Shown piece after piece: positions 1,803-55,704 of a stretch of DNA of 64,000 nt. The stretch covers positions 435,061 to 499,060 of the forward strand of contig CAZKGL010000001.1 in assembly GCA_964552565.1 (NCBI GenBank). The letters run 5' to 3'. A model generated the notes under the pieces. The model did not search any database. It was not told the DNA's origin and was given only the letters and a program-made list of their open reading frames with translations. Source of the DNA: an uncultured Gammaproteobacteria bacterium (GTDB lineage Bacteria > Patescibacteriota > Patescibacteriia > UBA9934). Position numbers and translations under genes: made by a program. How positions within the stretch are numbered: the stretch's first letter is position 1; every line of letters begins with the position of its first letter.

Positions 1803-3110
1803 CTAGTAATCGCGAAGTTTCTGGATGATGTCTTTCTGCTGGATCTTCTCGAGCGCCTTCGCTTCGATCTGACGGATGCGTTCGCGGGTGACGTCAAACT
1901 CGCGGCCGACCTCTTCGAGGGTATGGCTGACGCCGTCGACGAGCCCGAAGCGCATCTCCAGGATCTTTTGTTCGCGCGGCGTGAGGTCTTTCATTGCCTC
2001 GTTGACATAGTCCTTGAGGAGCTGCCGCGCGGCGGCCTTGTCCGGCGAGATGTTCTTCACGTCCTCGATGAAGTCCTCGAGCGTCGAGTCGTCATCGTCA
2101 TCACCGACCGTCGTTTCGAGCGACACGGTCTCCTGCGAGATCTTCTGGATGTGCTGCACCTTCTCGAGCGGCATGTCGAGCTCTGCGGCGAGCTCTTCGA
2201 GGAGCGGCTCGCGGCCGAGGTCCTGGATGAGGCGGCGCTCCACCTGCTTGAACCGGTTGATGGTCTCGACCATGTGGACCGGGATGCGGATGGTGCGCGA
2301 CTGGTCGGCAAGCGCGCGGGTGATGGCCTGGCGGATCCACCACGTCGCGTACGTGGAGAACTTGTAGCCCTTGCGGTATTCGAACTTCTTCACCGCGCGG
2401 AAGAGGCCGACGTTGCCCTCCTGGATGAGGTCAAGCAGCGACAACTGCTTGCCGACGAACTTCTTTGCGATGGAAACGACGAGACGGAGGTTCGCCTCGA
2501 TGAGCCGGCGCTCCGCTTCTTTGTCGTTGCGTTCCTTGCGCTTTGCGAGCGCGACCTCTTCTTCCGCTGAAAGGAGCGGGATCTTGCCGATCTCGCGCAG
2601 GTACATCTGGATGGAGTCCTGCGTCAGTTCCGACGGCTCGCTGAGGCTCGCGCGCTGCTTTTCCTTCTCCGCGCTGATGCGGAGTTTGTCGTAGACCTCG
2701 TCTCGGGTCTTACTGCCGCCGAGGAAACCCTCCTTCATCTCGACGAAGTGCAGACCCTTCCGCTCCAGGCGGTCAAGAAACTCGTCAAAAAGGTCGAGAT
2801 GGTCTTCGACGTACCCAAAAGCGAACATGACTTCGTTTTCCGTGACGAAACCCCGGGTCTGGCCGCGCTCAATCATGCGGTTCAGCGACTCTTCGCTCGG
2901 CGGCGGGGACTTGCGGGACGCCAAAATCGCCGCCTCGTTCGGTCGCTTCGGCGGTCGGATCTCTTTCTCCTTCTCGGGCCGCTTTGCCGCTGGCTTTTGT
3001 GCGGGCTTTTTCGACGCCTTCACCGGTTTCTTTCCCGGTTTCCTTGTGGGAGGAATGGCCTTCTTGTGTTTGGACGGTACAATCGCTTTCTTCTTGGTGC
3101 GCTGCGGCAT
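1803..3110 (-). CDS. rpoD: RNA polymerase sigma-70 (primary sigma factor) with a Lys/Pro-rich N-terminal extension
   Basis: Conserved regions 2-4 ([39 protein letters not shown]...TRERIRQIE); ATG at 3108-3110; lies immediately downstream of dnaG. Confidence 0.9.
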
Positions 3111-3113
3111 AGG

Positions 3114-4964
3114 TTACTTGCCCAAAATGCGAAGGAGTTGGGCGTACTCCGCAAGGAGTGCGTTCAGGGAAGCGGACTGCGAAAGTTCGGCCGCGCGAAT
3201 GGCGGCTTCGAGTTCTTTGCGCCGCTGGTCCCCAAGGGCACCCTTTAACAAAGCAATGTGCTGGTCGAGTTCTGCCCGAACCATGTCGGGTGACCATCCT
3301 CGAACCTGCTCTTCAAGTCGCAACAGCGTCGCGTCGATACGACGGAGGTCGTCATCGGCGCCACGCGAACGGACGTCACTCTGGAGGCGCGAATAAAGCG
3401 ATTGGTTGGTCGCGCCTGCAATCTGCCCCGAAGTATACTGTGCCTTCGCCATGGTGTAAAGACGCCGCCACGGCTCAGCGGGCAGCGCAGTTTCTGGCAC
3501 GCGGTCGAGGATTTCCGCGGCGACGCCGTCGTCCGCGAGCATGAGCCCGATGACGAACTCGGCGGCGCGGTCTTCTTTGGTCTGCTTTTTTTGGTGGGGG
3601 GTGGGAGGGTGGGAGGGTGGGAGGGTTTTCGGTGTGCTCGGCGCGGCGCGTTTGGCGACTTCGCGCTCGAGCACCTCGACCGCGACGTGCGTTGCGTCGG
3701 ACAAACGCAGCAGGTACAGATGCCGGTCGACGCTGCGCGGGATGCGCGCAATCTCGCCCACGAGCTCGTCGACCAGCGCGCGGCGCTCTTCGATGGTCGC
3801 GCTGCCCGACCGCGCCTCGTACGCCTTGAGCTGACGGTCAAACATGAATTCCACGATCTCCTTGGACGACTGCGCGATGCGCCGCCAGGCCTCGGGATCC
3901 TTCTGCACGACTTCGTCCGGGTCTTTGCCGGCGTCGCGAGGGATGATAAGGCAACGGATCTCGAGTTCGGGAAACTTCGTCCGCGCGATCTCGAGCGCAC
4001 GGCGCGCCGCGGCGAACCCGGCCGCGTCTTCGTCGAGCGCAAACACGATGCGCTTCGTATAGCGCGACAGGATTTTCAGCTGTTCCTCGGTCAGCGCGGT
4101 ACCCGAGCTCGCGACGATGTGCTCCACGCCCGCCTTGTGCGACGACACGACATCGAGGTTGCCTTCGACGACGATGACGCACTTCGCGGTGCGGATACCG
4201 GTCTTCGCCAGGTGCAGCCCGTACAGCACACGTCCCTTGGAATACACCGGCGACTCCGGCGAGTTCATGTACTTCGGCGCCACCGGCGTCACCGTCTGGC
4301 CCGGGCCGATGGTGCGCGCGGTAAAGCCGACGATGTTCCCGACGGCGTCGTGGAGTGGAATCATCACGCGGTGCCGGAAACGATCCAGCAGTCCGTCGCC
4401 CGACTTCTTGCGGATGCCAAGTCCGGCATCGACGATCTGCGTCGCGCCGTAGCCGCGGGATCCCAAAAACTGTACCAGCGCGTCCCACCGGTCGGGCGCG
4501 TAGCCAAGCCCGAACTTCTCGATGAGGTCGGGCGTGATGCCCCGCTTCGCGAGATAGTCGCGCGCCCCTGCCCCGTCCGGATGGTTGCGCAACACTTTCG
4601 CGAAGAACTTCTGTGCGAGATCCTGAATCGTCAGAAGCGACTCGCGCGCATCGACGACCGCCTTGGGCTGGGGACGGAACTCCGGCACGTCGACGCCCGC
4701 GCGTTTCCCGAGGTGCCGGAGCGCCTCCGGGAACGTCATGCCCTCGAGTTCCATGACGAACGCAAAGACGTCCCCGCCCTTGTCGCACCCGAAGCAATGC
4801 CAGATCTGCCGCTCGCGCGACACGTGGAACGACGGCGTCTTTTCGGCGTGAAACGGACAGACCGCCTTGAAGCTCCCGCTTCCCGCCGGTTTCAACTGCA
4901 AGTACTCCCCGAGTACGTCGGCGATGTCGAGTTTCTGCCGAATTTCATCCTTCGGTTCGAGCAT
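3114..4964 (-). CDS. dnaG: DNA primase
   Basis: N-terminal zinc-binding motif (CPFHAEKTPSF...CFGCDKGGD), TOPRIM region (EGNLDVVS, DEDAAG); dnaG-rpoD arrangement with a 3-nt gap. Confidence 0.9.
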   Translation of the reverse strand: MLEPKDEIRQKLDIADVLGEYLQLKPAGSGSFKAVCPFHAEKTPSFHVSRERQIWHCFGCDKGGDVFAFVMELEGMTFPEALRHLGKRAGVDVPEFRPQPKAVVDARESLLTIQDLAQKFFAKVLRNHPDGAGARDYLAKRGITPDLIEKFGLGYAPDRWDALVQFLGSRGYGATQIVDAGLGIRKKSGDGLLDRFRHRVMIPLHDAVGNIVGFTARTIGPGQTVTPVAPKYMNSPESPVYSKGRVLYGLHLAKTGIRTAKCVIVVEGNLDVVSSHKAGVEHIVASSGTALTEEQLKILSRYTKRIVFALDEDAAGFAAARRALEIARTKFPELEIRCLIIPRDAGKDPDEVVQKDPEAWRRIAQSSKEIVEFMFDRQLKAYEARSGSATIEERRALVDELVGEIARIPRSVDRHLYLLRLSDATHVAVEVLEREVAKRAAPSTPKTLPPSHPPTPHQKKQTKEDRAAEFVIGLMLADDGVAAEILDRVPETALPAEPWRRLYTMAKAQYTSGQIAGATNQSLYSRLQSDVRSRGADDDLRRIDATLLRLEEQVRGWSPDMVRAELDQHIALLKGALGDQRRKELEAAIRAAELSQSASLNALLAEYAQLLRILGK

Positions 4965-5024
4965 GGCGCCAGATTAGCGGATTTCGACCGGATTTGCTAG
5001 CGTGTCTGCACGCCAGGAGTTCCC

Positions 5025-5558
5025 ATGTCCTTTGCATCTCCGAACGACATCGTCATCGTGTCCGCGTGTTGGCCCGTCGGCCAGGCCATGCAGTTCATGA
5101 CCGTCATCGGCCGCGTCGCCACCGTCGAGGGCGCGACGATCCGGACGTCGTGGCGCACCGAGCTGACATGGTCGCCGGCGTGCTCCCGCGAGCAGCTCCT
5201 CGCGCACCGCGGCTTCATGGTGTGGCCCGACGACAAGGCCGCCGCGAGCGATGTCTGCCGCGCGATGCTTTCGGAGCAGACATTCTGGCGCATCGGCGCC
5301 TGGGTCGGCGGACACGACCCGGCGCGCCTCACCCACCGCCGTCTCGCCGGCACGACGCGGTTCGGCACGCCGATCAACGACTTCGTGCTCGGCGTGTGCG
5401 TGACGAGCGAGGTCAAGCAGGACCCGAACCTCGGCGAGGTCGACGGCGCGCACGAGGTCGCGCTCCTCGTCGCGCCACGACGCACCCCGCGGGGCTACTT
5501 CGACCGCTGCATCATGGGCAAGGACGACGTGCGCCTCCACGGCACCCCGCTGGATTGA
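5025..5558 (+). CDS. Hypothetical protein (177 aa)
   Basis: ATG at 5025 preceded by AGGAG; no antisense competitor with motifs; no recognisable family. Confidence 0.45.
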   Translation: MSFASPNDIVIVSACWPVGQAMQFMTVIGRVATVEGATIRTSWRTELTWSPACSREQLLAHRGFMVWPDDKAAASDVCRAMLSEQTFWRIGAWVGGHDPARLTHRRLAGTTRFGTPINDFVLGVCVTSEVKQDPNLGEVDGAHEVALLVAPRRTPRGYFDRCIMGKDDVRLHGTPLD

Positions 5559-6082
5559 CGAGGCCGCTTCCGAGCAGTAGCATGCGGGCGCACCGTGAGG
5601 GCACATGACCGGAGCGCCGCTCGTCGTCGTGTGGATCCTCCTCACGGCGATCGGTACTGCAACCCTTGCGTTGTGGCCGCTCGGGAGTCCCCCGCGGCCC
5701 AACCCCGTAGCACACGGAGGAAACGCACCGCCGTCGGTAGCACCCGCCCCCTCAGCAGCTCCAAGACGAGCAGCACGCCTCGCGCAGTCCCGTACCGCTC
5801 GAGATGACCGGCAACGCCGCTACCGTCGCCTGGTGACCTGGATCCCGCCCCCGTACCACATCGCTGCGCCCGTCTCGACGGGCATCCCACACACATGGCG
5901 AGCGGCCGGTGGCCAATCGCAGCTTCGTCCTTTCGCGGACTGGTAAGACGGCGCTCCCTTCCCTGCGCCTGTCGCACCGTTCGGAGAGACGCTCGCTCTG
6001 CAACATGACCGGGTCGTGGGCATCTCCCACGTCGCGCCCCGCGTCCGACACTCGTCGGCCGGGGCGCTCTTCTTTTTCTCCA

Positions 6083-6116
6083 TGTTCAAAAAATGACGAT
6101 CGTCATTTTTTGAACA
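6083..6116. promoter_or_regulatory. 34-bp perfect palindrome (operator-like site 1) overlapping the stop codon of the PaaX-like gene
   Basis: TGTTCAAAAAATGACGATCGTCATTTTTTGAACA; perfect dyad centred on GATC. Confidence 0.5.
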
Positions 6117-6603
6117 GGTGGCGCTCTCGAACAGCGAATACCTTTACATGTCGTCCCAATCCGTTCAGCTGAGCAAAATAGAGCAGGTGATCCGCGATGT
6201 CCGTCCTCCCGACCCAAACGCTTTTCTGGAGCATACGATACCGCTGCTCACGCAAAAGCTTACGGACCTCTGCACGAAGCCAACGATATCGCTCTGGGAT
6301 ATCGAACACGACCATGCATTGTTCACCTTCCCGCAGCGGACGCTGTCCCTTTCGCATGCATGCCAGTACAGCGAGTGTGACGCCCTTCTTCGTGATGACA
6401 ATTGCGCCATCTCTTCTTTTCCGGACGAGCTTCCTCTTTACTAGGCGGCGTAACGCATTTCGTTCTCTGCTCTTATACTGGTGATAGCTGTATTGAAACG
6501 ATGTTGGAGAGTATTTATATGGGCTCTGCATCATCTCGAATGTCCACCCAACCTCCCGGCAGATGGCAAGTAGCACTTCCATGGTTTTTGATGCACGTAC
6601 CAT
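6103..6603 (-). CDS. PaaX-family transcriptional regulator-like protein
   Basis: Winged-helix segment (RRLVKRKLVRKRRDGAIVITKKG) and the PaaX middle-domain signature (MVVFDIPERYRWLRAEVRKLLREQRYRMLQKSVW, compare E. coli PaaX WLLLLSEGLDKSTLADVKKQLIWQGF). Probable start is ATG at 6601-6603, or 6582. The region is lower in GC than its flanks. Confidence 0.55.
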   Translation of the reverse strand: MVRASKTMEVLLAICREVGWTFEMMQSPYKYSPTSFQYSYHQYKSRERNALRRLVKRKLVRKRRDGAIVITKKGVTLAVLACMRKGQRPLREGEQCMVVFDIPERYRWLRAEVRKLLREQRYRMLQKSVWVGRTDIADHLLYFAQLNGLGRHVKVFAVRERHLFKK

Positions 6604-6605
6604 AC

Positions 6606-6639
6606 TGTACAAAAACTGCCGATCATCATTTTTTGGACA
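6606..6639. promoter_or_regulatory. 34-bp imperfect palindrome (operator-like site 2) immediately upstream of the PaaX-like start codon
   Basis: TGTACAAAAACTGCCGATCATCATTTTTTGGACA, 29/34 identical to the site at 6083-6116. Confidence 0.5.
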
Positions 6640-6907
6640 ATGTCGCCGCACCCTCGCTGCGAAGCCGCGCAACCTTCGCCTCCGCCCCTCGGTTATAGCC
6701 GCCCGTCTTGCCGTCGGAGCGAATGACGCGGTGGCACGGGATTGCGGGGTCGTAGTTTTTATTCAAAATATTGCCGACGGCGCGGTAGGCGCGGGGGCGC
6801 CCGGCACGTGCGGCGACCTCTTTGTACGTCAGGACGCTCCCCTCGGGGATCTGTGTGACCACCGTGTACACCGCATCGCGGAAGGAATCAGACATAGTGG
6901 AGGACAT
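6626..6907 (-). CDS. Methylated-DNA-protein-cysteine methyltransferase (MGMT/Ogt) DNA-binding domain protein, ~93 aa, single domain
   Basis: Active-site motif PCHRVI and surrounding Ogt C-terminal-domain conservation (YKEVAARAGRPRAYRAVGNILNKN...IPCHRVIRSDG); ATG at 6905-6907 or 6893-6895. Confidence 0.7.
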   Translation of the reverse strand: MSSTMSDSFRDAVYTVVTQIPEGSVLTYKEVAARAGRPRAYRAVGNILNKNYDPAIPCHRVIRSDGKTGGYNRGAEAKVARLRSEGAATLSKK

Positions 6908-7600: not shown

Positions 7601-10006
7601 ATGACCATGCGACTCTCTCGCGGCATCGGCGTTGCAGCCGGATTCCTCGCCGCATTCCTCATGGCGGCAAGTGCCGCAACCGCCCAGGCCGCGGGCGGAT
7701 GGACCGATGTCGACCTCGACATTTCGCTCGCTGAGCTCAACGGCATCGATGCCTACGGCTCAAGCCTGGCGATGATCGTCGGCAGCGGCGGCCTTGTGCT
7801 CGCGTCAACAGACAACGGCCTCACGTGGTCCGATGCGTCGCTCAGTTCCGCGGACATGGAGGGCCAGTCGTTCGACCTCTACGACGTGGACGTGATGAGC
7901 GCAACGACTGCGGTCGTCGGCGGCGAAGGCGGTATCTGGCGCACGACGGACGGCGGAGACACGTGGACCTGGGAAGAGATCGAGATCCTGGACACCGTCC
8001 GCGGCATCGACATGGGAAGCAGCACGATTGGTATCGCCGCCACGACGAACGGGACGATTTTCCGCACGACGGACGGCGGAGACACGTGGAGCAGCGTCGT
8101 CACGGGCACGAACGACTACTACGCAGCCTACTGCTACAGCGGCGGAAACCCGTGCTGGGCGGCCGGGGCGAACTCGAGCGGCACCGGCATCGTCTCCAAA
8201 TACAGCGGCAGCTCCTGGACAACAACGACGGTAACGGGCAGCGGCGTCTTGTACGGCATCGACTTTGTCTCGACGTCGACCGGATGGGTCGTCGGTGACG
8301 GAAGCTTTTTCAAAACGACCAACGGCGGCTCCAGCTGGTCGTCGGTAACGAGCGAATCGCTCGACGGGACGGAGGCGCTCTACGGTATCGACATGGCGAG
8401 CGCGTCGACCGGCTACGTTGTCACCAACGACGCGAAGATCGTGCAGACGAGCGACGGCAGCAGCTGGACGAACGGCACCGAGGTCGACAGCGTCTTCAGC
8501 TGGATGTACGCCGTAAACGCAAACCTCAAGATCGCGGTCGGCGGTTTCTCGAGCGCCTCGCGCTACGACGTCGCGGCTCCGGACGCGCCGACGAACTTCT
8601 TTGCTGAAGACGACACCACCACGGACCGCACGCCGTCGTTCACCTGGACCGCGGCCGTCGACGATGAAACCCCGATCGACTCCTACGAAGTCAAGCGCAA
8701 CAGCGGAAGCTGGACGAACATCGGCAACGTGACCAGTTACACCTGGCCGGCAACCATCGCGCCCGGCGCGCATACGTTCCTGCTCCGCGCCTACGACAGC
8801 GCCGGCAACGTCAGCGCGGAAGCGACCGAGACACTCACGGTCGACCTCACCGCCCCGACGGTCCCTGCGCCGTCGATCAACGCCTCGGAAGTCGGCGAGG
8901 AAATCACCTACAGCGTCGTTGCGACGGACGCGGAGACCGATGTCGCGAGCTGCACGCTCTACGTCAACGCGGCTAGCGTCGCGACGATGGTCGATATGAC
9001 GTCGGACTTCTACTACAGCACCCTGGCGGCAAGCGCCGGGACGTTCACCGCGTACGCCGTCTGCGTCGACAGCGCGGGCAATAGCACGACCGGCGCGTCG
9101 ACCGCGTACACCGTGACGGAGAGCAGTTCGAGTTCGTCGAGCGGCGACACCACTGCGCCCGTCGTCAGCGCAGTCTCCCCGTCGAGCGGCACATACGGCG
9201 TCATGGCGACCTGGACCGCCACCTACGCCGACGCGGTCGGCGTGACGGGCTGCACCTTCTACTTCGACGGTCGCAGCCGCGGCGCGATGACCATTGAGTC
9301 CGCGACCGCGGGCACGGCGACGACGACGTTCGCGCCGGACGACAGCGGGACGTCGAGCGCGTATGTCGTGTGCGAAGACGCCGCCGGCAATGAAGGGACC
9401 GGCGCAACGACGACCGTCGCGGTCGCCGCAAGCAGCTCGTCGAGCAGCGACACGAGCTCCGACACGTCGGACACCACGGATACCACGGATACAACCGACA
9501 CGACGTCCGACGAGGAAGACGAGGCGGTGAGCGAAGCGGAGCCGGGCAACCTCATTAAGCTCGCGTGTGCGGACGGGGCGGACATCAATGACCCGTGCAA
9601 GGCGGTCTACTACTACGACACGATCGACGAGAAACGCCACGCGTTCCCGAACGAAAAGGTCTACTTCACGTGGTACGACAGCTTCGACGATGTCATCATC
9701 GTCACCGACGAGTTCATGGCGTCCCTCACGCTCGGCGCCAACGTCACCTACCACCCGGGTACGCGGATGGTGAAGTTCATCACCGTCAACACCGTGTACG
9801 CGGTCGGTGAGGAGGGCGAGCTGCGTCCCATCGACAGCGAAGACACCGCCATCAGCATTTACGGCAGCACGTGGAACCAGCAGATCGACGACATCTCGGA
9901 CGCGTTCTACGGCAACTACGAGTTCGGCGAGGAGATCGATTCGACGAGCGACTTCGACCCGGACGCGGTCGAAGCGAGCGTCGACTCCATCGATGACATC
10001 CTCTAG
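7601..10006 (+). CDS. Large secreted/surface protein with BNR (Asp-box) beta-propeller repeats, Ig-like repeats, an acidic Ser/Thr/Asp linker and a conserved C-terminal domain
   Basis: Signal peptide (MTMRLSRGIGVAAGFLAAFLMAASAATAQA); repeated SxDxGxTW-type motifs (TDNGLTWSD, TTDGGDTWTWEE, TTDGGDTWSSV, TTNGGSSWSSV, TSDGSSWTNG); linker SSSSSDTSSDTSDTTDTTDTTDTTSDEEDE; C-terminal ~150 aa nearly identical to the paralog at 10110-12521. Confidence 0.75.
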   Translation: MTMRLSRGIGVAAGFLAAFLMAASAATAQAAGGWTDVDLDISLAELNGIDAYGSSLAMIVGSGGLVLASTDNGLTWSDASLSSADMEGQSFDLYDVDVMSATTAVVGGEGGIWRTTDGGDTWTWEEIEILDTVRGIDMGSSTIGIAATTNGTIFRTTDGGDTWSSVVTGTNDYYAAYCYSGGNPCWAAGANSSGTGIVSKYSGSSWTTTTVTGSGVLYGIDFVSTSTGWVVGDGSFFKTTNGGSSWSSVTSESLDGTEALYGIDMASASTGYVVTNDAKIVQTSDGSSWTNGTEVDSVFSWMYAVNANLKIAVGGFSSASRYDVAAPDAPTNFFAEDDTTTDRTPSFTWTAAVDDETPIDSYEVKRNSGSWTNIGNVTSYTWPATIAPGAHTFLLRAYDSAGNVSAEATETLTVDLTAPTVPAPSINASEVGEEITYSVVATDAETDVASCTLYVNAASVATMVDMTSDFYYSTLAASAGTFTAYAVCVDSAGNSTTGASTAYTVTESSSSSSSGDTTAPVVSAVSPSSGTYGVMATWTATYADAVGVTGCTFYFDGRSRGAMTIESATAGTATTTFAPDDSGTSSAYVVCEDAAGNEGTGATTTVAVAASSSSSSDTSSDTSDTTDTTDTTDTTSDEEDEAVSEAEPGNLIKLACADGADINDPCKAVYYYDTIDEKRHAFPNEKVYFTWYDSFDDVIIVTDEFMASLTLGANVTYHPGTRMVKFITVNTVYAVGEEGELRPIDSEDTAISIYGSTWNQQIDDISDAFYGNYEFGEEIDSTSDFDPDAVEASVDSIDDIL

Positions 10007-10011
10007 ACCGC

Positions 10012-10109: not shown

Positions 10110-12521
10110 ATGCGCCATTTGCTTCCCTTCCGCATCGCTTCGATAGGAGCGCTGCTTGTTGCGTCATGGTTCTTCAGTCACTCGGCCCTTGCGGGCTGGT
10201 ACACGCCCACGTCGGGCACGACCGCATCCCTCTACGACATCGACTACTACAGCGGCTACGTCGTTGCGGTGGGCTCGGGCGGGACAATCCGCTTTTCCGT
10301 CGATGCCGGACATTCGTGGTCAACGAGCACGAGCGGCACCACGTCGGCGCTGTACGCAGTCGATTCGGATAGCGGCTATGTCCTCGCCGTCGGCTATGGC
10401 GGCGTCATTCTGCGATCGACCAACTACGGCGCGACATGGACTGCCGTCACGAGCGGCACCACCGCGTCGTTGTACGACGTCATGATGAATCCCTACGGCC
10501 GGGCGTTCGCCGTCGGCTATGGCGGCGTACTCCTCACCTCAACGGACTACGGCGCGACATGGAGCGCACAGACTTCTGGTACGACGAACACGCTCCAGGC
10601 GGTTGACATTTGGGGCACCACCCGCGCCTACGCCGTCGGTTCGAGCGGCACCATCTTGTACTGGAACGGGACGACATGGAGCGCACAAACGTCCGGGACA
10701 ACGGAGACGCTGTACGGTGTCGCGATGTCCGGGACAACGGAAGCCTGGGTGGTGGGCTCCGGCGGCGTGGTACGGAAAACGACCGATGGCACGACGTGGA
10801 GCAGCGTCACGACGATTACCGGCCAAACGCTCTACAGTATCGAGATGTCGTCGAGCACGGCGGGCGGCATCATGGCAAAGACCGGCTTGTACGAAACCAC
10901 GAACGGAACGACATGGGCGGCAGCGTCGACCGGCAGCTGGTCGAGCGTATCCTGGGTGCTGAACGTCGATTACGGCACGATCCGTTTTGCCGTGGGCGCG
11001 AGCGGGAATATCCGTCGCTATGACCACTACGGCCCGGCTGTGGGTGCAGTAACACCGACGACTGCGCTCGAGGGCGTCCCGGTCACCTTCAGCGTTGACG
11101 CGACGGATGAAGCGGTCGTGACCCGATGCGATATCGAAATCCTTTCGGGTGACGGCAGCGGCGTCGTCCTGGACGGCGTGGACAGCGAAGATGACAGCTG
11201 GACGGCAAGCTATACGCTGAGTGCCGGCACCTACACGACCCAAGCGACGTGTTACGATCCGGCCTATAACTTTACGATGGGCGCAAGCAGCACCCTGACC
11301 GTCTCTGCGCCGGCGGACACGACCGAGCCCACTGTCGGGTCGCTCATCGTCGTCGAGGACGCCGTCGGGTCGCCGAGCGTATTCACGGTTTCGGCGTCGG
11401 ACGACGTCGGCATCGACTTCTGCACGCTCGTCATCTTGGAGGGCGACCTCGGCAGTGCGGGATTCCGCATGGCCATCCCGGCGTACGCCACCGCGGACAT
11501 GACCGGATCGGATGGTGCGTACACGGCAACATACACCTTTACTGCGGCAGGCGATTACACGGCATACGCGTACTGCCGCGATGCGGCGGGAAACCAGGCG
11601 AACACCGCGGATGCCATCTTTACGATTGACGCCGCGGCTGCGGCATCGGATACCGACGACACCGCGCCGACCATCGGGACGCCTTCCCCGACGAGCTTCA
11701 CGCTCGGCACCTCGCGCACGGTCACGGCGACTGTCAGCGACGACGTCGGCATCGAGAGCTGCGACCTCTTCATTGACGCTGAGAACGCCGGACTCATGAC
11801 GGTGAGCGGCGGGACAGCGAGCAAGTCCTACACCTTCTCGACAAACGACTGGGCCGACGGCGATACGGCGACGGTGACGGTGGAATGCGCAGACGAGGCC
11901 GGCAACTTCGACAGTACGTCGGTCGTCGTCACGCTCAGCGAGGCGGCGGTCGCGGATGAAGAAACGACAACGGAAGAAGAAACCGCGACGGATGAAGAAA
12001 CGGTAACCGTCGAAGAAGACCTGACAAACGAGGACGGCGACGCAGAGGCAGGCATGCTCATCAAACTCGCCTGCAGCGAAGGCGCGGACGTCAATGACCC
12101 GTGCAAAGCGGTCTACTTCTACAGCGAGTACGACGGCAAGCGCCACGCGTTCCCGAATGAGAAGGTCTACTTTACCTGGTACGCGAACTTCGACGAGGTC
12201 GCGGTCGTGAGCGACGAGTTCATGGCATCCCTCACCTTGGGACGCAACATCACGTACCGCCCCGGCACCCGCATGGTGAAGTTCATTACCGTCAACACGG
12301 TCTACGCGGTGACCCGAGGCGGCGTGCTGCGTCCCATCGACAGCGAGGAAACGGCCATCGCCCTCTACGGCGCGACGTGGAACCAGCAGATCGACGACAT
12401 CTCCGACGCGTTCTACGGCAACTATAGCTTCGGTGACGAAGTGACGAGCGGCGATGACTACGACGCGGAGACTGAGGAAGACGCCATCACCACGATCGAC
12501 GCCAACCTCCAGTGGCAGTAA
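10110..12521 (+). CDS. Paralogous large secreted/surface protein with BNR-like repeats, Ig-like repeats, an acidic linker and the same conserved C-terminal domain
   Basis: Signal peptide (MRHLLPFRIASIGALLVASWFFSHSALA); repeated TW-containing propeller-like motifs (SVDAGHSWSTSTSGTT, TNYGATWTAVTSGTT, TDYGATWSAQTSGTT, TDGTTWSSV); C-terminal domain GMLIKLACSEGADVNDPCKAVYFY...GTRMVKFITVNTVYAV...WNQQIDDISDAFYGNY shared with the first paralog. ATG at 10110; the listed ORF begins at an upstream GTG. Confidence 0.75.
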   Translation: MRHLLPFRIASIGALLVASWFFSHSALAGWYTPTSGTTASLYDIDYYSGYVVAVGSGGTIRFSVDAGHSWSTSTSGTTSALYAVDSDSGYVLAVGYGGVILRSTNYGATWTAVTSGTTASLYDVMMNPYGRAFAVGYGGVLLTSTDYGATWSAQTSGTTNTLQAVDIWGTTRAYAVGSSGTILYWNGTTWSAQTSGTTETLYGVAMSGTTEAWVVGSGGVVRKTTDGTTWSSVTTITGQTLYSIEMSSSTAGGIMAKTGLYETTNGTTWAAASTGSWSSVSWVLNVDYGTIRFAVGASGNIRRYDHYGPAVGAVTPTTALEGVPVTFSVDATDEAVVTRCDIEILSGDGSGVVLDGVDSEDDSWTASYTLSAGTYTTQATCYDPAYNFTMGASSTLTVSAPADTTEPTVGSLIVVEDAVGSPSVFTVSASDDVGIDFCTLVILEGDLGSAGFRMAIPAYATADMTGSDGAYTATYTFTAAGDYTAYAYCRDAAGNQANTADAIFTIDAAAAASDTDDTAPTIGTPSPTSFTLGTSRTVTATVSDDVGIESCDLFIDAENAGLMTVSGGTASKSYTFSTNDWADGDTATVTVECADEAGNFDSTSVVVTLSEAAVADEETTTEEETATDEETVTVEEDLTNEDGDAEAGMLIKLACSEGADVNDPCKAVYFYSEYDGKRHAFPNEKVYFTWYANFDEVAVVSDEFMASLTLGRNITYRPGTRMVKFITVNTVYAVTRGGVLRPIDSEETAIALYGATWNQQIDDISDAFYGNYSFGDEVTSGDDYDAETEEDAITTIDANLQWQ

Positions 12522-36407: not shown

Positions 36408-36450
36408 CGGCAGGAGCTCCCACTCGGGACTCCTGCCGTTGCTCGTTGTT
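36408..36450. terminator. Terminator-like hairpin between convergent 36051-36389 (+) and mnmA (-)
   Basis: CGGCAGGAG...CTCCTGCCG 9-bp stem followed by TTGCTCGTTGTT. Confidence 0.5.
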
Positions 36451-37564
36451 ATGCAGCAATGACGCCGCTACCGATGAGTTCGTCGCCGTCGTAGAACGCG
36501 ATGAACTGCCCCGGCGCGACGGCGCGCTGCGGCGTGTCGAAGGTGACGACCACCCCCGAACCCCCTCCATGAATGGAGGGGGACTTCGCTCCCTCTTGGC
36601 TACCCCCATTCATGGGGGCTAGGGGGTAGACGACACACGGGGCGAGCGGCTGGCGGTAGCGGATGCGCGCCGCGATTTTTTTGTTTTGCGCGTCCGTGAG
36701 GTTGCCCGGAACGGTCTCCGTCAGGTCCGTCGCAACGAGTGCGGAACGGTACAGCGCCGGATCCTCGTCCCCAACCGCGACCACGACCTCGTTCGTCTCC
36801 GGACGGCGTTCGACGACATAGAGCGGCGTCCCGCCGCCGACACCAAGCCCCTCGCGCTGGCCGATGGTGTAGAACGCGAACCCCTTGTGCGTGCCGAGGA
36901 CCTTTCCGTCCGTCGTCACAATGTTTCCCTCGTGCGGCGCAATGCGTTCGGCAAGGAAATCGACCATGTCGACTTTGCCGACAAAGCAGATACCTTGGCT
37001 GTCCTTTTTCTCCGCGACCGGAAGCGCAAACTTCCGTGCACGCTCGCGCACCTCGGGTTTCGTGTACTCGCCAATCGGGAAGATGACGCGGCGCAACTGC
37101 TCCTGCGTCAACTGACAAAGGAAGTAGCTTTGGTCCTTGTTCGTGTCGACGCCGGCATACAACCGCCCGTCCTTCACGCGGGCGTAGTGCCCGGTTGCCA
37201 CGAAGGCGCACCCCAGCGCGTCCGCTTCGCGGAGGAACAGGTCGAACTTCATGTACTTGTTGCACCGCACGTCCGGATTCGGTGTGCGTCCCGCCCTGTA
37301 CTCGGCGATCATGTACTCGTATACCTTGCGGCGATACTCCTCCTCAAAGTCGAACGTATGGAATGGGATACCGAGCTGCGCTGCGACCCGCATCGCGTCG
37401 CGCCGCTCCGCGCGCCAGCCGCAACTTTCGTCCTCAGTCCCGTCGCTCCAGTTCTTCATGAATCCGCCGACGACCTCATAACCCTGTTCCAACAGCAATG
37501 CCGCGCTGACGCTTGAGTCAACGCCGCCAGAGAGGCCCACAAGGACGCGAGGCTTCGGCTGCAT
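36449..37564 (-). CDS. mnmA: tRNA-specific 2-thiouridylase MnmA
   Basis: PP-loop SGGVDSSV, catalytic Cys region and C-terminal barrel (AVAPGQFIAFYDGDELIGSGVI); contains an in-frame family-1 repeat at 36552-36628. Confidence 0.9.
   Translation of the reverse strand: MQPKPRVLVGLSGGVDSSVSAALLLEQGYEVVGGFMKNWSDGTEDESCGWRAERRDAMRVAAQLGIPFHTFDFEEEYRRKVYEYMIAEYRAGRTPNPDVRCNKYMKFDLFLREADALGCAFVATGHYARVKDGRLYAGVDTNKDQSYFLCQLTQEQLRRVIFPIGEYTKPEVRERARKFALPVAEKKDSQGICFVGKVDMVDFLAERIAPHEGNIVTTDGKVLGTHKGFAFYTIGQREGLGVGGGTPLYVVERRPETNEVVVAVGDEDPALYRSALVATDLTETVPGNLTDAQNKKIAARIRYRQPLAPCVVYPLAPMNGGSQEGAKSPSIHGGGSGVVVTFDTPQRAVAPGQFIAFYDGDELIGSGVIAA
36552..36628. repeat. GC-rich double-hairpin repeat (family 1, in-frame copy within mnmA)
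   Basis: ~90% identical to 40752-40828; hairpins CCCCCTCCA-TGAA-TGGAGGGGG and CTACCCCC..GGGGGTAG; encodes PLAPMNGGSQEGAKSPSIHGGGSGVV. Confidence 0.7.
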
Positions 37565-37576: not shown

Positions 37577-38266
37577 CTACCCGACTGTACGGAAGATGTC
37601 GAGCTCTGGCTCTGCGGCAACGGTGATGCGCTCCTTCGTGACCGGTTGGTCAAACTCGAGCGACCGGGCGAACAGCCCGATGGCGCCGCTGTGACCCTCC
37701 CCCTGCCCGAGGGGGAGTTGGAGGGGGTGGGAGGCGCCGTATTTTTTGTCGCCGACGATCGGGGTGCCGAGCGATGCCATGGCCACGCGAATCTGGTGCG
37801 GCCGTCCTGTTGCGGGTTGCACCTCGACAAGCGATCGCCCGTCCTTGGACGCGAGGACGCGGTACGAGAGTTGCGCCCGCTGCGAATCCGGGACCTCGTG
37901 GTCGTACGCGGTCACGAAATTCTTCGCCTCGTCCTTCACCAGCCACTGGATCACATCGCCTGCGGTTTTTTCCGGCCTGCCTTCCACGACCGCCCAATAC
38001 GTCTTGTCGATGCTGTGCGAACGGAACTGTTCAGACAGGCGGCTCGCGCCCTTCGATGTCTTTGCGAACAGCACGACGCCCCCGACCGGCCGGTCGAGGC
38101 GGTGGAGCAGCCCCAAAAACACGTTGCCGGGCTTCGCGTCGCGCGACTTCAGCAATGCTTTTACTTCGTCCATCACATTGACGTCCCCTGTCTCGTCGCC
38201 CTGCGTCAGCATGCCGTGCGGTTTGCGGACGGCAATCAGGTGGTTATCTTCGTAGAGGATGTCCAT
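37577..38266 (-). CDS. RluA-family pseudouridine synthase
   Basis: Catalytic motif HRLDRPVGGVVLFAK plus the C-terminal GDKKYG...LFARSLEF region typical of RluA/RluD-type enzymes. Confidence 0.85.
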   Translation of the reverse strand: MDILYEDNHLIAVRKPHGMLTQGDETGDVNVMDEVKALLKSRDAKPGNVFLGLLHRLDRPVGGVVLFAKTSKGASRLSEQFRSHSIDKTYWAVVEGRPEKTAGDVIQWLVKDEAKNFVTAYDHEVPDSQRAQLSYRVLASKDGRSLVEVQPATGRPHQIRVAMASLGTPIVGDKKYGASHPLQLPLGQGEGHSGAIGLFARSLEFDQPVTKERITVAAEPELDIFRTVG

Positions 38267-38384
38267 ACCGCCGAAAGATTAACATATGGCGGACGGAGGC
38301 GCTACTACGGCGGCGTCCGGATAAATAGCGGCTTCATAATTTTGCGATCGTGAAGTTATGAAGCTTCGCAGCTGTCAGCTACAT

Positions 38385-38957
38385 CTATTGCTCCTTGATG
38401 CCGAACTTCTTGAATATCCCCTCAACCGTCGATTGTTGCGCTTCGGTGTCCGCGGCAAGCACGACCGCCTCGCCGTCGTCCCAATGCAACGTGTAGAGGT
38501 ATTTCGGCCCGCGGTGGGTCGCCGTGTTCCGCTTCGAGTATGTCACGCCCTCCCCCGAAAGCTGCTCGTCCTCGCTTCCCTTCTGCCGCCGCAACTCGCC
38601 CGTCTCTTTGTTGTAGATGTACAGCGTGTCGCGGCTTGCAATCCCGTCCGTTGCGCGGTCCGCAACCTGCGCGCGGCCTACGCCAAACATGCTCCACGAC
38701 CCGACCGCAAGCATGAGGCACAACGCGCCGAATACGATGGCGGCGACCGCCCCCGTTTTCCCATTCGCGACCGCGATGCCGCCGGGGACGATGAAGAGCG
38801 CCCCCAGAATAAGGCACCATGCAATCAGCCACGGCCAGGTCTTCACGGTCGTCTCGTTGAATGGCGCAAATCGGATAATGAGCAGGTCGTCCTGCGCAAG
38901 CACGCCGTACTGCAGCAGTTCGTACAAGGATTCTGCCCCTGCGATCGTTGCAAGCAT
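38385..38957 (-). CDS. Hypothetical membrane protein (190 aa)
   Basis: Two hydrophobic helices (WLIAWCLILGALFIVPGGIAV, AVAAIVFGALCLMLAVG) with a hydrophilic C-terminus; no family. Confidence 0.45.
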   Translation of the reverse strand: MLATIAGAESLYELLQYGVLAQDDLLIIRFAPFNETTVKTWPWLIAWCLILGALFIVPGGIAVANGKTGAVAAIVFGALCLMLAVGSWSMFGVGRAQVADRATDGIASRDTLYIYNKETGELRRQKGSEDEQLSGEGVTYSKRNTATHRGPKYLYTLHWDDGEAVVLAADTEAQQSTVEGIFKKFGIKEQ

Positions 38958-39828: not shown

Positions 39829-40638
39829 CTACGCGGTCAAGCGATCCGCAAACACGGTGAGGAGCAGCAGGCCGAACGCAATGCGATACAGCGCAAACAC
39901 ACCGAACCCCGTCTTGCGGATGATAAAAAACAACAAGCGGATGGCAATGACGCCAAAGATGAGCGCGGAGGCGAAACCGATACCGAGCATGCCCCATGCG
40001 AGGTCTGTCGCCCCGGCATCGACAACATCCCACGCCGTCTTAGCGCCTGCGCCAACGATGGCGGGTATTGCGAGGAGGAAGGAAAAGCGCGCCGCCTGCC
40101 CGCGGTCCATGCCGGAGAACAAGCCGATGGTCATGGTCGCGCCCGACCGCGAGGTGCCCGGGATGAGCGCGAAAGCTTGCGCGACGCCAACGGCAACCGC
40201 CTGGCCCCACGTGACATCGTGGACGCGACGCGCGTCGATGGTGCGCTTCTTTGGGACGTAGTCGGCAATGCCAAGCAGGATGCCCCACGCAATGAGCATT
40301 GCCGCGACGACCGGCAGCGTGCGCACTGCGTCCATCATGCTGCCGAGCGCGGCGCCGACGATGACCGCCGGGATGGTCGCCACGAGCAGCTTCACTGCCA
40401 ACGACCGGTCGGCCCGGACCCTTTCGCGGATGCCCTTCACGAGGGCGCCGATTTCGCGGCGCATGGCGATGACGATGGCGAGCAGCGTCGCAAGGTGGAC
40501 CGCCACATCGAACACCAACCCTTGCGCCTCCCAACCGAAGAGCGCCGGAATCGCAAGAAGGTGGCCGGAGCTCGAAATGGGGAGGAACTCGGTGAGGCCC
40601 TGGACCGCGCCAAGCACTGCCGCCTCAAGGAACGTCAT
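39829..40638 (-). CDS. uppP: Undecaprenyl-diphosphate phosphatase
   Basis: UppP/BacA signature (GAVQGLTEFLPISSSGHL...PGTSRSGATM) with 8 TM helices; its start overlaps the stop of the upstream ATPase gene (ATGA). Confidence 0.85.
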   Translation of the reverse strand: MTFLEAAVLGAVQGLTEFLPISSSGHLLAIPALFGWEAQGLVFDVAVHLATLLAIVIAMRREIGALVKGIRERVRADRSLAVKLLVATIPAVIVGAALGSMMDAVRTLPVVAAMLIAWGILLGIADYVPKKRTIDARRVHDVTWGQAVAVGVAQAFALIPGTSRSGATMTIGLFSGMDRGQAARFSFLLAIPAIVGAGAKTAWDVVDAGATDLAWGMLGIGFASALIFGVIAIRLLFFIIRKTGFGVFALYRIAFGLLLLTVFADRLTA

Positions 40639-42530
40639 AGCTCTTCGTCAAACGTTATGCGCTCGCCGGGCATGACCTGCTGCGGCGCGGCGGCTGGCGC
40701 GTCCCCGCCGTTCCCGCGGTTGCGGCGTCGGCGTCGGCGTTTGCGGCCAACCACCCCCGAGCCCCCTCCATCAATGGAGGGGGACCCGGTTCCCTCTTGG
40801 CTACCCCCATTCATGGGGGCGAGGGGGTTGAGCATGTCGCCTGCACGTGGTGCGGCGTCGTCGTGCGCCGGGACGGGTTTCGGCGGTGACGCCTCGGGTT
40901 TCTTTACGGGGGAAAGTGCGGACAACGACATGCTTTCGCCCGCCTCCCGCGCAACAGGCTCACCGTCATGCACCTTCGGCGCCGGCCCGGACTCCTTGCC
41001 CTTCTGGCGTACCTCCTTCTTTTCCTTCCCCTTCTTCCGCTCCTCCATCACGATGGGGTGGCACTCTTCACAGTAAATCGGGCGCGACCGGTCAAGCTCC
41101 ACCGGCAACAAAAACTTCTTCCCGCAGCGGGTGCAGTCATACTCGTGGCTGTACCGCTTCTTTTTGTCCTCCTTCTTTTGCGCCGCGACCGCGGCGAGCG
41201 CTCCGGCCACGTCGACGTTCGGGTCAAACCCCGCCCACGTCGCGACGTGCTCTTCAATCTGCGCCTTGTTGCCGGCGTACCGTTCGCGCGACTGCGCGAT
41301 GACCCGCTCCGCGCTGCCCGTGCGCTGGGCGATGGGCGGCAGCGTCTGCGCCGAAAACGGATGGCTCGTCACGCCGTCAATCATGAGTTTGACGTAGATG
41401 GCGTGCTTCGGGAGGTTGATGATGTCTTCCGGCGTGAACCGCGGCATGAGCTCGTTCTCGAGGAAGACGGCGTCCGGCGAGCCGACGCGGAAGAACACCA
41501 TGCTGCCGACGTTGCCGAACACTGCGTCCCGCACCGCAGTCGACGTCCCCTGCTCGAGCTGGGCGATGTACTGGTGCGCCATGATGAGGTTGAGCCGGTA
41601 CTTGCGCGCTTCAGAGAGCACGCTTGCGAACGATTCGACGGCAAAGTTCTGGAATTCGTCGACGTACAGGTAGAAATCGTTCCGCTCGGACTCCGGGACA
41701 TTCACGCGCTCCATGGCCGACATCTGGATCTTCGTGATGAGCATGCCGCCGAGGAGGCGCATCGCATCTTCACCGACGCGCCCCTTGGAGAGGTTGATGA
41801 TGAAAATCTTCTGGCTGTCCATGATGTCGCGGATGTTGATGGACGACTTCGCCTGCGCGACGATGTTGCGAATGACCGACGACGACAAGAATTGGCCGAT
41901 CTTGTTTTGGATCGGCGCAACCGCCTCGGTCGCGAATTTCGCATCATATTGGGCGAACTCCTGCAGCCAGAACTGTTTGACGATCGGGTCGGTGACGTTC
42001 GTGATGATCTGCGCGCGGTAGTCCTTATCCGACAGCATGCGATTGATGCCGAGCAGCGTGGATCCCGACGTGTCGAGGAGCGCAAGGATGGTGTTATTCA
42101 AAATGTACTCCATGCGCGCCGACCACACGTTCTCCCAGATCTTTTTGAACACCGACATGAGGCTCGACGCGACGAGGTGCTTCATGGTCGGATCCACCGA
42201 CTCGAGGATGTTGAAGCCGATCGGGTAGTCGAGGTCCGACGGATTGAAATACACGACGTCGTTGATGCGCCAGGACGGGATGTAATCGATCAGCTTTTCC
42301 GCGGTGTCGCCGTGCGGATCGACATAACAACACCCGTGGCCGGCGTAGATGTCGGCCAGGATCATGTTCTCGAGCAGCGTCGTCTTGCCCATGCCGGTCT
42401 TTCCGATGACGTACATGTGCCGGCGGCGGTCGTCGGTCTTGACGCCGAACTTGCGCATCGCATTCCGGAAGTTGGTCTTGCCGAAATAGATGACGTCGCT
42501 CTCGTGGTCATGTTCGTAACGCATTGGCAT
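40635..42530 (-). CDS. FtsK/HerA/TraG-superfamily P-loop ATPase resembling type IV coupling proteins (TraD/VirD4-like), soluble, with a C-terminal zinc ribbon and basic tail
   Basis: Walker A VIGKTGMGKTT, YVDPHGD (like the DPKG motif of TraD/VirD4), Walker B FYLYVDEFQNF, Zn ribbon YDCTRCGKKF...IYCEECH, Arg-rich tail; contains an in-frame family-1 repeat. Confidence 0.65.
   Translation of the reverse strand: MPMRYEHDHESDVIYFGKTNFRNAMRKFGVKTDDRRRHMYVIGKTGMGKTTLLENMILADIYAGHGCCYVDPHGDTAEKLIDYIPSWRINDVVYFNPSDLDYPIGFNILESVDPTMKHLVASSLMSVFKKIWENVWSARMEYILNNTILALLDTSGSTLLGINRMLSDKDYRAQIITNVTDPIVKQFWLQEFAQYDAKFATEAVAPIQNKIGQFLSSSVIRNIVAQAKSSINIRDIMDSQKIFIINLSKGRVGEDAMRLLGGMLITKIQMSAMERVNVPESERNDFYLYVDEFQNFAVESFASVLSEARKYRLNLIMAHQYIAQLEQGTSTAVRDAVFGNVGSMVFFRVGSPDAVFLENELMPRFTPEDIINLPKHAIYVKLMIDGVTSHPFSAQTLPPIAQRTGSAERVIAQSRERYAGNKAQIEEHVATWAGFDPNVDVAGALAAVAAQKKEDKKKRYSHEYDCTRCGKKFLLPVELDRSRPIYCEECHPIVMEERKKGKEKKEVRQKGKESGPAPKVHDGEPVAREAGESMSLSALSPVKKPEASPPKPVPAHDDAAPRAGDMLNPLAPMNGGSQEGTGSPSIDGGGSGVVGRKRRRRRRNRGNGGDAPAAAPQQVMPGERITFDEEL
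40752..40828. repeat. GC-rich double-hairpin repeat (family 1, in-frame copy within the T4CP-like ATPase gene)
   Basis: Near-identical to 36552-36628; encodes PLAPMNGGSQEGTGSPSIDGGGSGVV in the C-terminal tail. Confidence 0.7.
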
Positions 42531-53936: not shown

Positions 53937-54090
53937 GCATCTACAAAAAATGTCCGGCCGGACAAAAAGTGTAGACGGGGGGCGTTACACTTTTTTCACG
54001 ATCGTCGATTTTGTGTAACGCTCCTGGTAACCAAAACCTCACGGCCGTAAAAAATTGATATCCATCACAAAACCGCCCTTGCGAGCGGTT
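53937..54090. repeat. 154-bp direct repeat, copy 1 (identical to 55542-55695)
   Basis: Perfect 154/154 identity; contains the palindrome TGTCCGGCCGGACA and a terminator-like hairpin AAAACCGCCC-TTGCGA-GCGGTT at its high-coordinate end. Confidence 0.9.
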
Positions 54091-54098
54091 CTGCGGGG

Positions 54099-54743
54099 CT
54101 ATTCAAGTCGCGCAGTCGTGATAAGCCCTTCAAGTGTAGCGAAGACGGCAGCCTCGTCGACCGCCTGGATACTGCCGGGATCCCAGTTGCCGATGTTGCC
54201 GGTCGCGACGATCGCCGCAAGCTCAACGCAATTCCCATCGTGCATTGCGTGGTACACCCGCCTTTCAAAACTCGTACCCGCAGCGGCTTCTCCAATAACC
54301 CCGTAATACCATGTAACGCCGCCGATCTCTTTCGTTTCCGTAAGCTCGACGGTGCCCGTGCCATAGCGAGCGAGGTTGCACGACAAAGCCGTATCGTTTT
54401 CGCTTATCCTACTAAATGATGAAAGATGCACCCAGGCGCCAAACAGGTTGGTGCCGTCATACGGCGCCTCATCAAGAAGGAACGTCGAGCGCACGGGGGG
54501 TGGGTTGCCGTTACTGCTCAGCATGTCGATGAGTGCGCTTCCCGTCTGATAGTCGGAAGCTTCGTCGGCAGCAACGGTAAATTCGTCTGGGTCGTATGCG
54601 AGCGTCAGGCCGAGCGTGCTATCGGAGAACGTCACGCTGCTTGCTTCCGAGGAGGAGGGGGCGGGACGTAAGGCTACGATCGCCAGAAAGACGGCCGCAC
54701 AGATCAATCCGCCCATGAGTATCGCGCGTGATGCCACGGTCAT
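54099..54743 (-). CDS. Hypothetical secreted/membrane-anchored protein (214 aa)
   Basis: N-terminal TM/signal segment (ILMGGLICAAVFLAIVAL); lies within the repeat-bracketed cassette. Confidence 0.5.
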   Translation of the reverse strand: MTVASRAILMGGLICAAVFLAIVALRPAPSSSEASSVTFSDSTLGLTLAYDPDEFTVAADEASDYQTGSALIDMLSSNGNPPPVRSTFLLDEAPYDGTNLFGAWVHLSSFSRISENDTALSCNLARYGTGTVELTETKEIGGVTWYYGVIGEAAAGTSFERRVYHAMHDGNCVELAAIVATGNIGNWDPGSIQAVDEAAVFATLEGLITTARLE

Positions 54744-54804
54744 AGATAGCCTTAAGAGTACCTTGAATAATTATTCCTGCACAGCCCGCTCGTCAAGGCA
54801 ATCA

Positions 54805-54828
54805 CAAAACCGCCCGGAGGCGGTTTTG
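54805..54828 (-). terminator. Intrinsic terminator inside the repeat-bracketed cassette, downstream of the 89-aa gene
   Basis: AAAACCGCCC-GGA-GGCGGTTTTG. Confidence 0.55.
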
Positions 54829-54848
54829 AGTGTGACACCTCTGTTTTT

Positions 54849-55118
54849 TTACTGCCAGAACCAAATCATGTACGAGCCGCGATACCCGTTCTGATACACG
54901 CAGTTCTCGGAACCAAGTTGGATGCCGAATGGCACTTTCCTTACCCCTGGCGCCCCGTCACCGCATGGGACCACACTTGCGTCGGCGGCGAGCTTCACCG
55001 CATCCTCTCCATGTCTCGTACGAATTTTTCGCATCGCTTCGTCGGTATCCATCCATGGCGCCCAGGCGCAAAGGCCGATGACGAGCACAACAACAGCGAT
55101 AACATGGGAATATTTCAT
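54849..55118 (-). CDS. Small secreted protein (89 aa)
   Basis: Signal peptide (VIAVVVLVIGLCAWAPW). Confidence 0.45.
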   Translation of the reverse strand: MKYSHVIAVVVLVIGLCAWAPWMDTDEAMRKIRTRHGEDAVKLAADASVVPCGDGAPGVRKVPFGIQLGSENCVYQNGYRGSYMIWFWQ

Positions 55119-55142
55119 ATTCGCGTTCTCCGAAGTAAAAGT

Positions 55143-55493: not shown

Positions 55494-55541
55494 AGTCGAG
55501 TCACTATACCGCGTGCCAACAGCTTAGCAACCTCATCCTGA

Positions 55542-55695
55542 GCATCTACAAAAAATGTCCGGCCGGACAAAAAGTGTAGACGGGGGGCGTTACACTTTTT
55601 TCACGATCGTCGATTTTGTGTAACGCTCCTGGTAACCAAAACCTCACGGCCGTAAAAAATTGATATCCATCACAAAACCGCCCTTGCGAGCGGTT
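55542..55695. repeat. 154-bp direct repeat, copy 2 (identical to 53937-54090); immediately downstream of secA
   Basis: Perfect identity to copy 1; its terminal hairpin also serves as the secA terminator (followed by TTTTG). Confidence 0.9.
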
Positions 55696-55704
55696 TTGTG
55701 CGCG

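Follow-up and report, generated by a model that had tools for sequence, protein, structure and literature searches.

The window, by which we mean the whole 64-kb stretch (64,000 nucleotides) analysed here, comes from a Candidatus Uhrbacteria host (an NCBI Candidatus Uhrbacteria DnaG fragment shows 100% identity to the window DnaG). At 6083-6639 it carries a cassette of ~560 bp in which one gene, here called mini-PaaX, lies between two copies of a palindrome. The features of this cassette and of the host gene that it meets at one end are as follows:

6083-6116: downstream palindrome (pal1), a perfect 34-bp palindrome, TGTTCAAAAAATGACGATCGTCATTTTTTGAACA
6103-6603, minus strand: mini-PaaX gene, 166 amino acids (aa), with its ATG at 6603, 2 nt from the upstream palindrome, and an alternative start, Met8, at 6582
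6124-6318, minus strand: Cas2-like (PaaX_M) ferredoxin-fold domain, residues 96-160, with the family-invariant motifs FDIPER and LQKSVW; presumed dimerisation module
6349-6507, minus strand: putative winged-helix DNA-binding region, residues ~33-85, predicted by AlphaFold2 as a helix, two short strands and a helix
6604-6609, minus strand: -10-like hexamer TACAGT, overlapping the outer arm of the upstream palindrome at offset +11 from its core, where the family has TATAAT; putative promoter element
6606-6639: upstream palindrome (pal2), TGTACAAAAACTGCCGATCATCATTTTTTGGACA, 29/34 bases identical to pal1
6626-6895, minus strand: MGMT-like neighbouring host gene (Pfam DNA_binding_1, 9.5e-29)

A preliminary description of this stretch had reported two palindromes bracketing a lower-GC gene, and this was confirmed. 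The core of pal1, CGATCG, occupies 6097-6102 between outer half-sites TGTTCA and TGAACA, and pal2 has the core CGATCA and the outer half-sites TGTACA and TGGACA; 0/100 shuffles of the sequence gave palindrome matches of this kind. In 200-nt windows, GC content was 0.47-0.56 within the bracket versus 0.60-0.69 outside it, and GC content at third codon positions (GC3) was 0.55 for the mini-PaaX gene versus 0.76-0.83 for DnaG, the MGMT-like gene, SecA and RluA. Both palindromes contain a stop codon: the mini-PaaX TGA (6103-6105) falls within pal1, and the stop codon of the MGMT-like gene (6626-6628), which had gone unmentioned before, falls within pal2. As single-stranded DNA, pal1 would form a stable hairpin (-15.3 kcal/mol, z = -6.9) and pal2 a weak one (-6.2 kcal/mol, z = -1.8), so hairpin stability is not conserved even within the window.

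The mini-PaaX protein is PaaX-like by one domain only. Pfam PaaX_M (PF20803, "PaaX protein central Cas2-like domain") matched residues 96-160 at 8.4e-11 (42.3 bits, cut-off 24) and was present in 5/5 matches of the first homologue search. The match to Pfam Cas2 (PF09827) was weak (3.4e-5, 24.4 bits, cut-off 23.8), and the Cas2 model TIGR01573 scored 24.2 bits, just under its cut-off of 24.5. The earlier label "PaaX-like" is thus right for the central domain and wrong for the remainder: PaaX_C, the C-terminal ligand/effector domain, had no Pfam match (the protein stops 6 residues past the Cas2-like domain), and the TIGR02277 PaaX equivalog did not match the window protein, with four relatives scoring 19-43 bits against a cut-off of 264.55. 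The Pfam PaaX N-terminal domain had no match at E <= 1 in the window protein either. As the preliminary description had stated, no paa operon lies nearby; the 25 Pfam families listed for 60 window ORFs are housekeeping families and include no paa, cas or transposase family. In Foldseek searches, Cas2 structures ranked first (probability 1.0, E ~5e-3), followed by E. coli PaaX (8a39) and Rv0674 (3kfw), and the acidic motif FDIPE aligns with the start (N-terminal strand) of Cas2 models. Searched against the PDB, the family profile gave weak matches to MarR-type winged-helix proteins (E = 0.005). Mini-PaaX, the sole gene of the unit, has neither a transposase, integrase or HUH domain nor a Y1_Tnp match, and no paralogues or remnants of it were detected within the window (next best match to the family hidden Markov model (HMM), E = 1). 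The opposite-strand ORF at 6118-6444 (+), which had been considered as a possible real gene, was rejected as such, having no Pfam match and no family HMM match; that model matched the minus frame only (1.6e-62).

A profile search placed mini-PaaX in a family of 6163 representatives of 50%-identity clusters, mostly 170-205 aa in length, and no family name was found for ten members whose clusters were looked up in public sources. Genomic surroundings were compared in a metagenome sample of 80 loci with 74 distinct homologues, retrieved with a four-sequence alignment, as a six-sequence one was too variable (L-numbers below are labels of homologue or relative loci). In the first two homologue contigs inspected, the gene was flanked on either side by a repeat with ACGATCGT at its centre, and a palindromic repeat of 30-45 bp that scores far above shuffled controls is common to both flanks of most complete loci. 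We then scanned without bias for any palindrome with at least 14/19 pairs, using control windows at least 700 nt away. A palindrome was present upstream of the gene in 42/67 family loci (63%), downstream in 56/73 (77%; these copies sit just past the stop codons) and on both sides in 38/66, compared to 28/1391 control windows (2%). The core CGRYCG occurred in 92/98 flanking palindromes versus only ~5 control hits. The bracket is therefore a property of the family, not of this window alone. There is no conserved partner gene, as the downstream neighbours of 70 homologues are unrelated housekeeping genes (138 Pfam families). In the literature searched, we found no description of a mini-PaaX architecture with the gene between two palindromes. 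One family locus, L046, has an array of sites rather than a simple bracket, with three tandem palindromes (TCTTTTTT...GACGATCGTC...AAAAAAG) at 1836-1960 (-403, -347 and -279 relative to the assigned start) and one more past the stop, at 3362 (+494).

Across the family, sequence information in the palindromes is limited to the core C-G-R-Y-C-G and to the position next to it, where A/T is preferred. There is almost none in the arms, which vary between loci yet stay self-complementary and match between both copies of one locus; their pairing is 0.72-0.98 up to 16-17 bp from the core and is highest at 10-14 bp. Within one locus, both copies show ~0.8 identity across +/-17 bp and background identity beyond. 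Their relative orientation is not fixed (direct better in 13 loci, inverted in 10, tied in 13), and between L074 and L084 the core has changed from CGGCCG to CGATCG in both copies together, a concerted change. Mismatches in the arms are balanced between G:T and A:C (23 versus 24 in upstream copies, 37 versus 25 in downstream copies), and T:T equals A:A. As there is no bias of G:T over A:C and none between T:T and A:A, the constraint is on symmetric duplex DNA rather than on a hairpin in a transcript or in single-stranded DNA. An RNA hairpin or other strand-specific element was rejected considering this absence of G:T bias and that Rfam matches were to tRNAs only; integron attC sites were also rejected, as an integrase is lacking and the R'/R'' motifs are not matched (judged by eye).

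The upstream copies differ from the downstream ones in their relation to promoter-like sequence. A -10-like box overlaps the outer arm in 22/40 upstream copies versus 8/52 downstream copies; the boxes of the upstream copies include eight perfect TATAAT and mostly lie at offset +11 to +14 from the core. In family loci the box is often 6-7 nt ahead of the ATG, a distance that points to transcripts with a short leader or none. Helical phasing of the two sites was not seen (Rayleigh p = 0.35-0.49), a result that is uninformative, as none is expected at ~600 bp; looping between the sites, which had been raised in the preliminary description, would be neither supported nor excluded by it.

To place the cassette in its genomic setting, the region between the MGMT-like gene and DnaG was compared with that of related Uhrbacteria:

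Window: MGMT, cassette, plus-strand gene without assigned function, DnaG
L113 (DnaG 77% identical): MGMT, a 454-aa gene, DnaG; no cassette, and no palindrome in the gap
L111 (DnaG 68% identical): a Y1 transposase with its own flanking repeats exactly at the MGMT stop codon
L112 (DnaG 69% identical): a different mini-PaaX (31% identical) beside DnaG, with other palindromes (GACATGGTAAA... arms)

The interval between the MGMT-like gene and DnaG is thus a variable insertion region in Uhrbacteria genomes, and nucleotide homology between the window and these relatives is limited to the MGMT-like gene and the DnaG end. The MGMT orthologue of L113 ends in ...EEGAL and a stop codon; the window ORF is five codons longer (TLSKK), running into pal2, and homology to the window stops at 6647. 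At the empty L113 site, the intergenic DNA is too diverged for a clean junction. The L111 transposase gene (1750-2497) has a weak Pfam Y1_Tnp match, and its flanking repeats read GTAACTTAGTTACATCCGATG...; L111 has another Y1_Tnp gene past the sigma-70 gene (9430-10008). Elsewhere in the family, the cassettes of L072 and L097 are 85% identical and have unrelated neighbours, with nucleotide similarity that reaches from the outer edge of one palindrome to that of the other and no further. In syntenic loci, conservation is higher for the cassette protein than for the proteins of neighbouring genes. No target-site duplication was seen, the similarity of the copies being confined to the symmetric 40 bp with no preferred orientation. 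Searches of plasmid collections, phage collections and IMG/VR found no family member.

These results bear on two readings that had been offered for the locus. The suggestion of a horizontally acquired element with terminal inverted repeats held in part: foreign composition, presence or absence among close relatives, and relocation that ends at the palindromes all agree with acquisition, but the repeats do not behave as the ends of an insertion sequence or transposon, as there is no transposase or recombinase, no consistently inverted orientation, no flanking duplication seen, and nothing in the repeat beyond the symmetric site itself. The other suggestion, that the palindromes are cognate operators of the encoded protein, is better supported, considering the family-conserved bracket, the symmetric sites without strand or orientation bias, the -10 overlap and an operator size like that of PaaX. 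The two readings are not mutually exclusive.

With moderate confidence, we favour a combination of the two, in which the segment 6083-6639 would be a self-contained, horizontally acquired single-gene unit, namely a transferable, autoregulated mini-PaaX repressor cassette bounded by two copies of its own operator. Because the cassette looks foreign and the same layout recurs in most relatives examined, it is probably a self-regulating, transferable gene unit. The protein would consist of two parts, an N-terminal region that is variable and winged-helix-like and a Cas2-like domain that is conserved and would form the dimer as in PaaX, with no effector domain. The palindromes would each be a ~34-40-bp symmetric duplex site with outer half-sites set far apart around the conserved CGRYCG. 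Because both the Cas2-like domain and the core are conserved, and both the N-terminus and the arms are variable, the arrangement suggests a dimer whose centre would lie on the core and whose wings would contact the outer half-sites. We infer that binding to the upstream copy, over the -10 region, would repress the gene (autoregulation). The downstream copy, on the stop codon, would mark the unit's other edge and may be a second operator, with a possible role in clamping or looping the gene or as a roadblock insulating the host genes.

The nearest characterised precedent is E. coli PaaX, which binds TGATTC-N27-GAATCA (39 bp) and represses its own promoter by steric hindrance, blocking RNA polymerase (PMC9493321). 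The two proteins (PaaX: PDB 8a39; TIGR02277) have in common the Cas2-like central/dimerisation domain and an N-terminal winged-helix region (putative here), and the sites are alike in being long operators with spaced half-sites that overlap a promoter (here TGTTCA-N22-TGAACA, 38-40 bp in the family, with binding predicted). PaaX differs in its length (~305 aa versus 166 aa here) and in having a phenylacetyl-CoA-binding C-terminal domain. The site here, unlike that of PaaX, is palindromic throughout, has a conserved CGRYCG centre and is present at both gene ends, and the mini-PaaX family belongs to uncultured, probably candidate-phyla-radiation, bacteria. MarR-type autoregulators offer a further likeness, as small dimeric winged-helix proteins with a palindromic operator over their own promoter (predicted here); however, their dimerisation module is helical rather than Cas2-like, the operator here is about twice as long, and a second copy lies at the 3' end of the gene.

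Several points weigh against this repressor interpretation. The N-terminal DNA-binding region is weakly supported (no Pfam match, and an AlphaFold2 predicted local distance difference test score (pLDDT) of 46-76), and the -10-like box in the window abuts the ATG, so that one of the two, start codon or promoter, is of uncertain assignment. In roughly a quarter to a third of family loci, one side has no detectable palindrome. A dimer contacting the outer half-sites only would leave the fully palindromic, copy-matched 40 bp and the near-invariant CGRYCG unexplained. To our knowledge, an operator placed on a stop codon has no established role, and we know of no mechanism that moves a unit lacking a recombinase.

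Eight palindromes of the cassette class are present in the 64-kb window, the cassette pair included; the class is recognised by arms rich in AT around a CGRYCG core, with a TnCA motif at a distance of 9-10 bp from it. Those outside the cassette include:

38331-38364: solo palindrome (GCTTCATAATTTTG-CGATCG-TGAAGTTATGAAGC), intergenic between two minus-strand genes
53940-54019: adjacent palindrome pair, cores CGGCCG (53940-53975) and CGATCG (53984-54019), in the left copy of a 157-nt direct repeat
55545-55624: the same palindrome pair, in the repeat's right copy, just downstream of SecA

The solo palindrome lies 20 nt past the stop of ORF 38385-38957 (-) and ~65 nt upstream of the RluA-like gene 37577-38266 (-). 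Its hairpin is weak, and its TnCA half-site has the same distance to the core as in pal1 and pal2; it may belong to the same system. The 157-nt direct repeats (53937-54093 and 55542-55698) are 99% identical, and each contains a terminator-like hairpin and two CGRYCG palindromes. Between them lies an islet of 1.45 kb (54094-55541), immediately downstream of SecA, with three small minus-strand ORFs (54099-54743, 54849-55118 and 55143-55493) that have hydrophobic N-termini and a GC3 of 0.62-0.66 versus ~0.80 for host genes; it has the look of another insertion in the style of the cassette, but without a mini-PaaX gene. Under the repressor interpretation, the site at 38331 and the two pairs near SecA would be possible further targets. 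The preliminary description had considered that the palindromes might lie upstream of many unrelated genes without a link to the regulator, which was not the case: the extra window palindromes share half-sites with the cassette's own. In other genomes, few extra copies were found within +/-4 kb of the family loci, and these have the outer half-sites and core of their own cassette's palindromes with differing spacers. Such sharing fits a sequence-specific binding protein with several targets, and REP-like dispersal would give the same result. Further copies of the palindrome itself, sought by scanning GTDB with AAAAANTGNCGATCNNCATTTTT (one genome per species, without the source genome), did not materialise: the 27 single hits were in unrelated taxa and at chance level by their flanks.

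The main alternative, possible though we think it unlikely, is a selfish protein-palindrome element like REP/RAYT (REPtrons), in which the palindromes are the ends and dispersed copies, regulation is secondary, and mini-PaaX is a Cas2-fold mobilising or maintaining enzyme that binds or cuts extruded hairpins or cruciforms at the CGRYCG centre. The likeness extends to a single gene between two ~35-bp palindromes, further intergenic copies and a patchy distribution among relatives, and this alternative is consistent with a unit of foreign composition that relocates as a palindrome-bounded block and is present, absent or replaced among close relatives. In L111, the very slot past the MGMT stop codon is taken by a Y1 transposase with its own repeats. 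The combination of a conserved centre and covarying arms is typical of hairpins that proteins recognise, the pal1 hairpin is very stable, the window has further palindromes, solo or in pairs, some of which enclose another low-GC3 islet, and the FDIPE motif aligns with the start of Cas2 models. However, mini-PaaX is not an HUH/Y1 enzyme, and the PaaX middle domain has no known nuclease or recombinase activity; the hairpins of pal2 and the solo site are weak; the palindromes show no strand asymmetry, no conserved flanking tetranucleotide and no fixed orientation of the two copies; the copy number seen is low, with few extra copies within +/-4 kb in other genomes; no family member was found in the plasmid, phage and IMG/VR collections; and the promoter overlap of the upstream copies is more simply explained by regulation. 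The stronger proposal, that mini-PaaX and the CGRYCG palindromes form a previously unrecognised class of selfish elements in candidate-phyla-radiation bacteria, we regard as distinctly unlikely. In it, the Cas2-fold protein would recognise, and possibly cut or synapse, the bounding palindromes, and so spread or maintain the unit and the solo palindromes; if true, this would be a functional parallel to RAYT/REP and a free-living Cas2-like protein with partly palindromic repeats outside CRISPR.

The fold matches also raise the possibility of an autoregulated toxin-like or defence module, a Cas2/VapD-like RNase or DNase toxin fused to its own autoregulator and persisting by addiction or defence. 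Cas2 and VapD, which have the same ferredoxin-like fold, are the top structural matches, Cas2 models of a defence library matched weakly (7.7e-6), and the unit has one compact gene of foreign composition and patchy distribution. We nevertheless consider this improbable, as the sequence is nearer to PaaX_M than to Cas2, PaaX itself being a repressor, as an antitoxin partner gene and a conserved neighbour are both lacking, and as no defence family reaches a convincing score. Unlike Cas2, the Cas2-like domain here is fused to a putative DNA-binding region; no cas1 is among the listed window families, the repeat scan found no CRISPR-like array, and the repeats here are 520-770 bp apart and enclose the gene itself. 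Ordinary transcription signals, that is, bidirectional intrinsic terminators or mRNA-end hairpins unrelated to the encoded protein, are very improbable as an explanation of the palindromes, even though pal1 has the A6-stem-T6 shape of a bidirectional terminator, downstream copies sit just past stop codons, and a terminator of the A-stem-T type with a CGGCCG centre exists in the window at 49804. The terminator scan of the window called neither pal1 nor pal2, A/T runs are inconsistently placed across the family and reversed in several loci, and the G:T bias over A:C expected of a transcribed hairpin is missing. The upstream copy, the invariant CGRYCG and the exclusive tie to the gene family (2% of controls) would also be left unexplained.

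Candidate-phyla-radiation bacteria have very few recognisable regulators. If mini-PaaX is a repressor with its own operators, each family member would be a natural protein-operator pair, with variable-arm specificities around a fixed core, that could help in studying the evolution of DNA recognition and serve as a source of orthogonal genetic parts. If it is instead an enzyme acting on the palindromes, it would represent a new kind of mobile element and a new context for the Cas2 fold, with a bearing on the origins of the association of Cas2 with repeats.

Some additional observations concern the surroundings of the cassette and other repeats in the window. The Logan contig SRR12113420_1208566 (L001), which carries this DnaG and corresponds approximately to window 2594-6112, ends inside pal1. 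K-mer assembly graphs are expected to break at a perfect palindrome of 34 bp, and an assembly break at pal1 may be the reason that the cassette gene is missing from the protein collection. Between the cassette and DnaG, the plus-strand ORF 5025-5558 encodes 177 aa with a GC3 of 0.93 and no Pfam match, and is followed by ~520 bp of GC-rich DNA (5559-6082) without a convincing ORF; in three relatives, its place is taken by unrelated genes (454-509 aa) for which tblastn gave no match to the window. An 82-nt repeat (36549-36630 and 40750-40831, 90% identical) lies in frame within two unrelated genes, the MnmA-like gene 36449-37564 (-) and ORF 40635-42530 (-), whose proteins both carry PLAPMNGGSQEG[AT][KG]SPSI[HD]GGGSGVV, and resembles the insertions known from Rickettsia palindromic elements. 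Finally, repeats of 274 nt and 119 nt (79-85% identical) at 9531-9933 and 12037-12439 are common to the C-terminal parts of two large adjacent BNR/Big_13 surface-protein paralogues (7601-10006 and 10110-12521).

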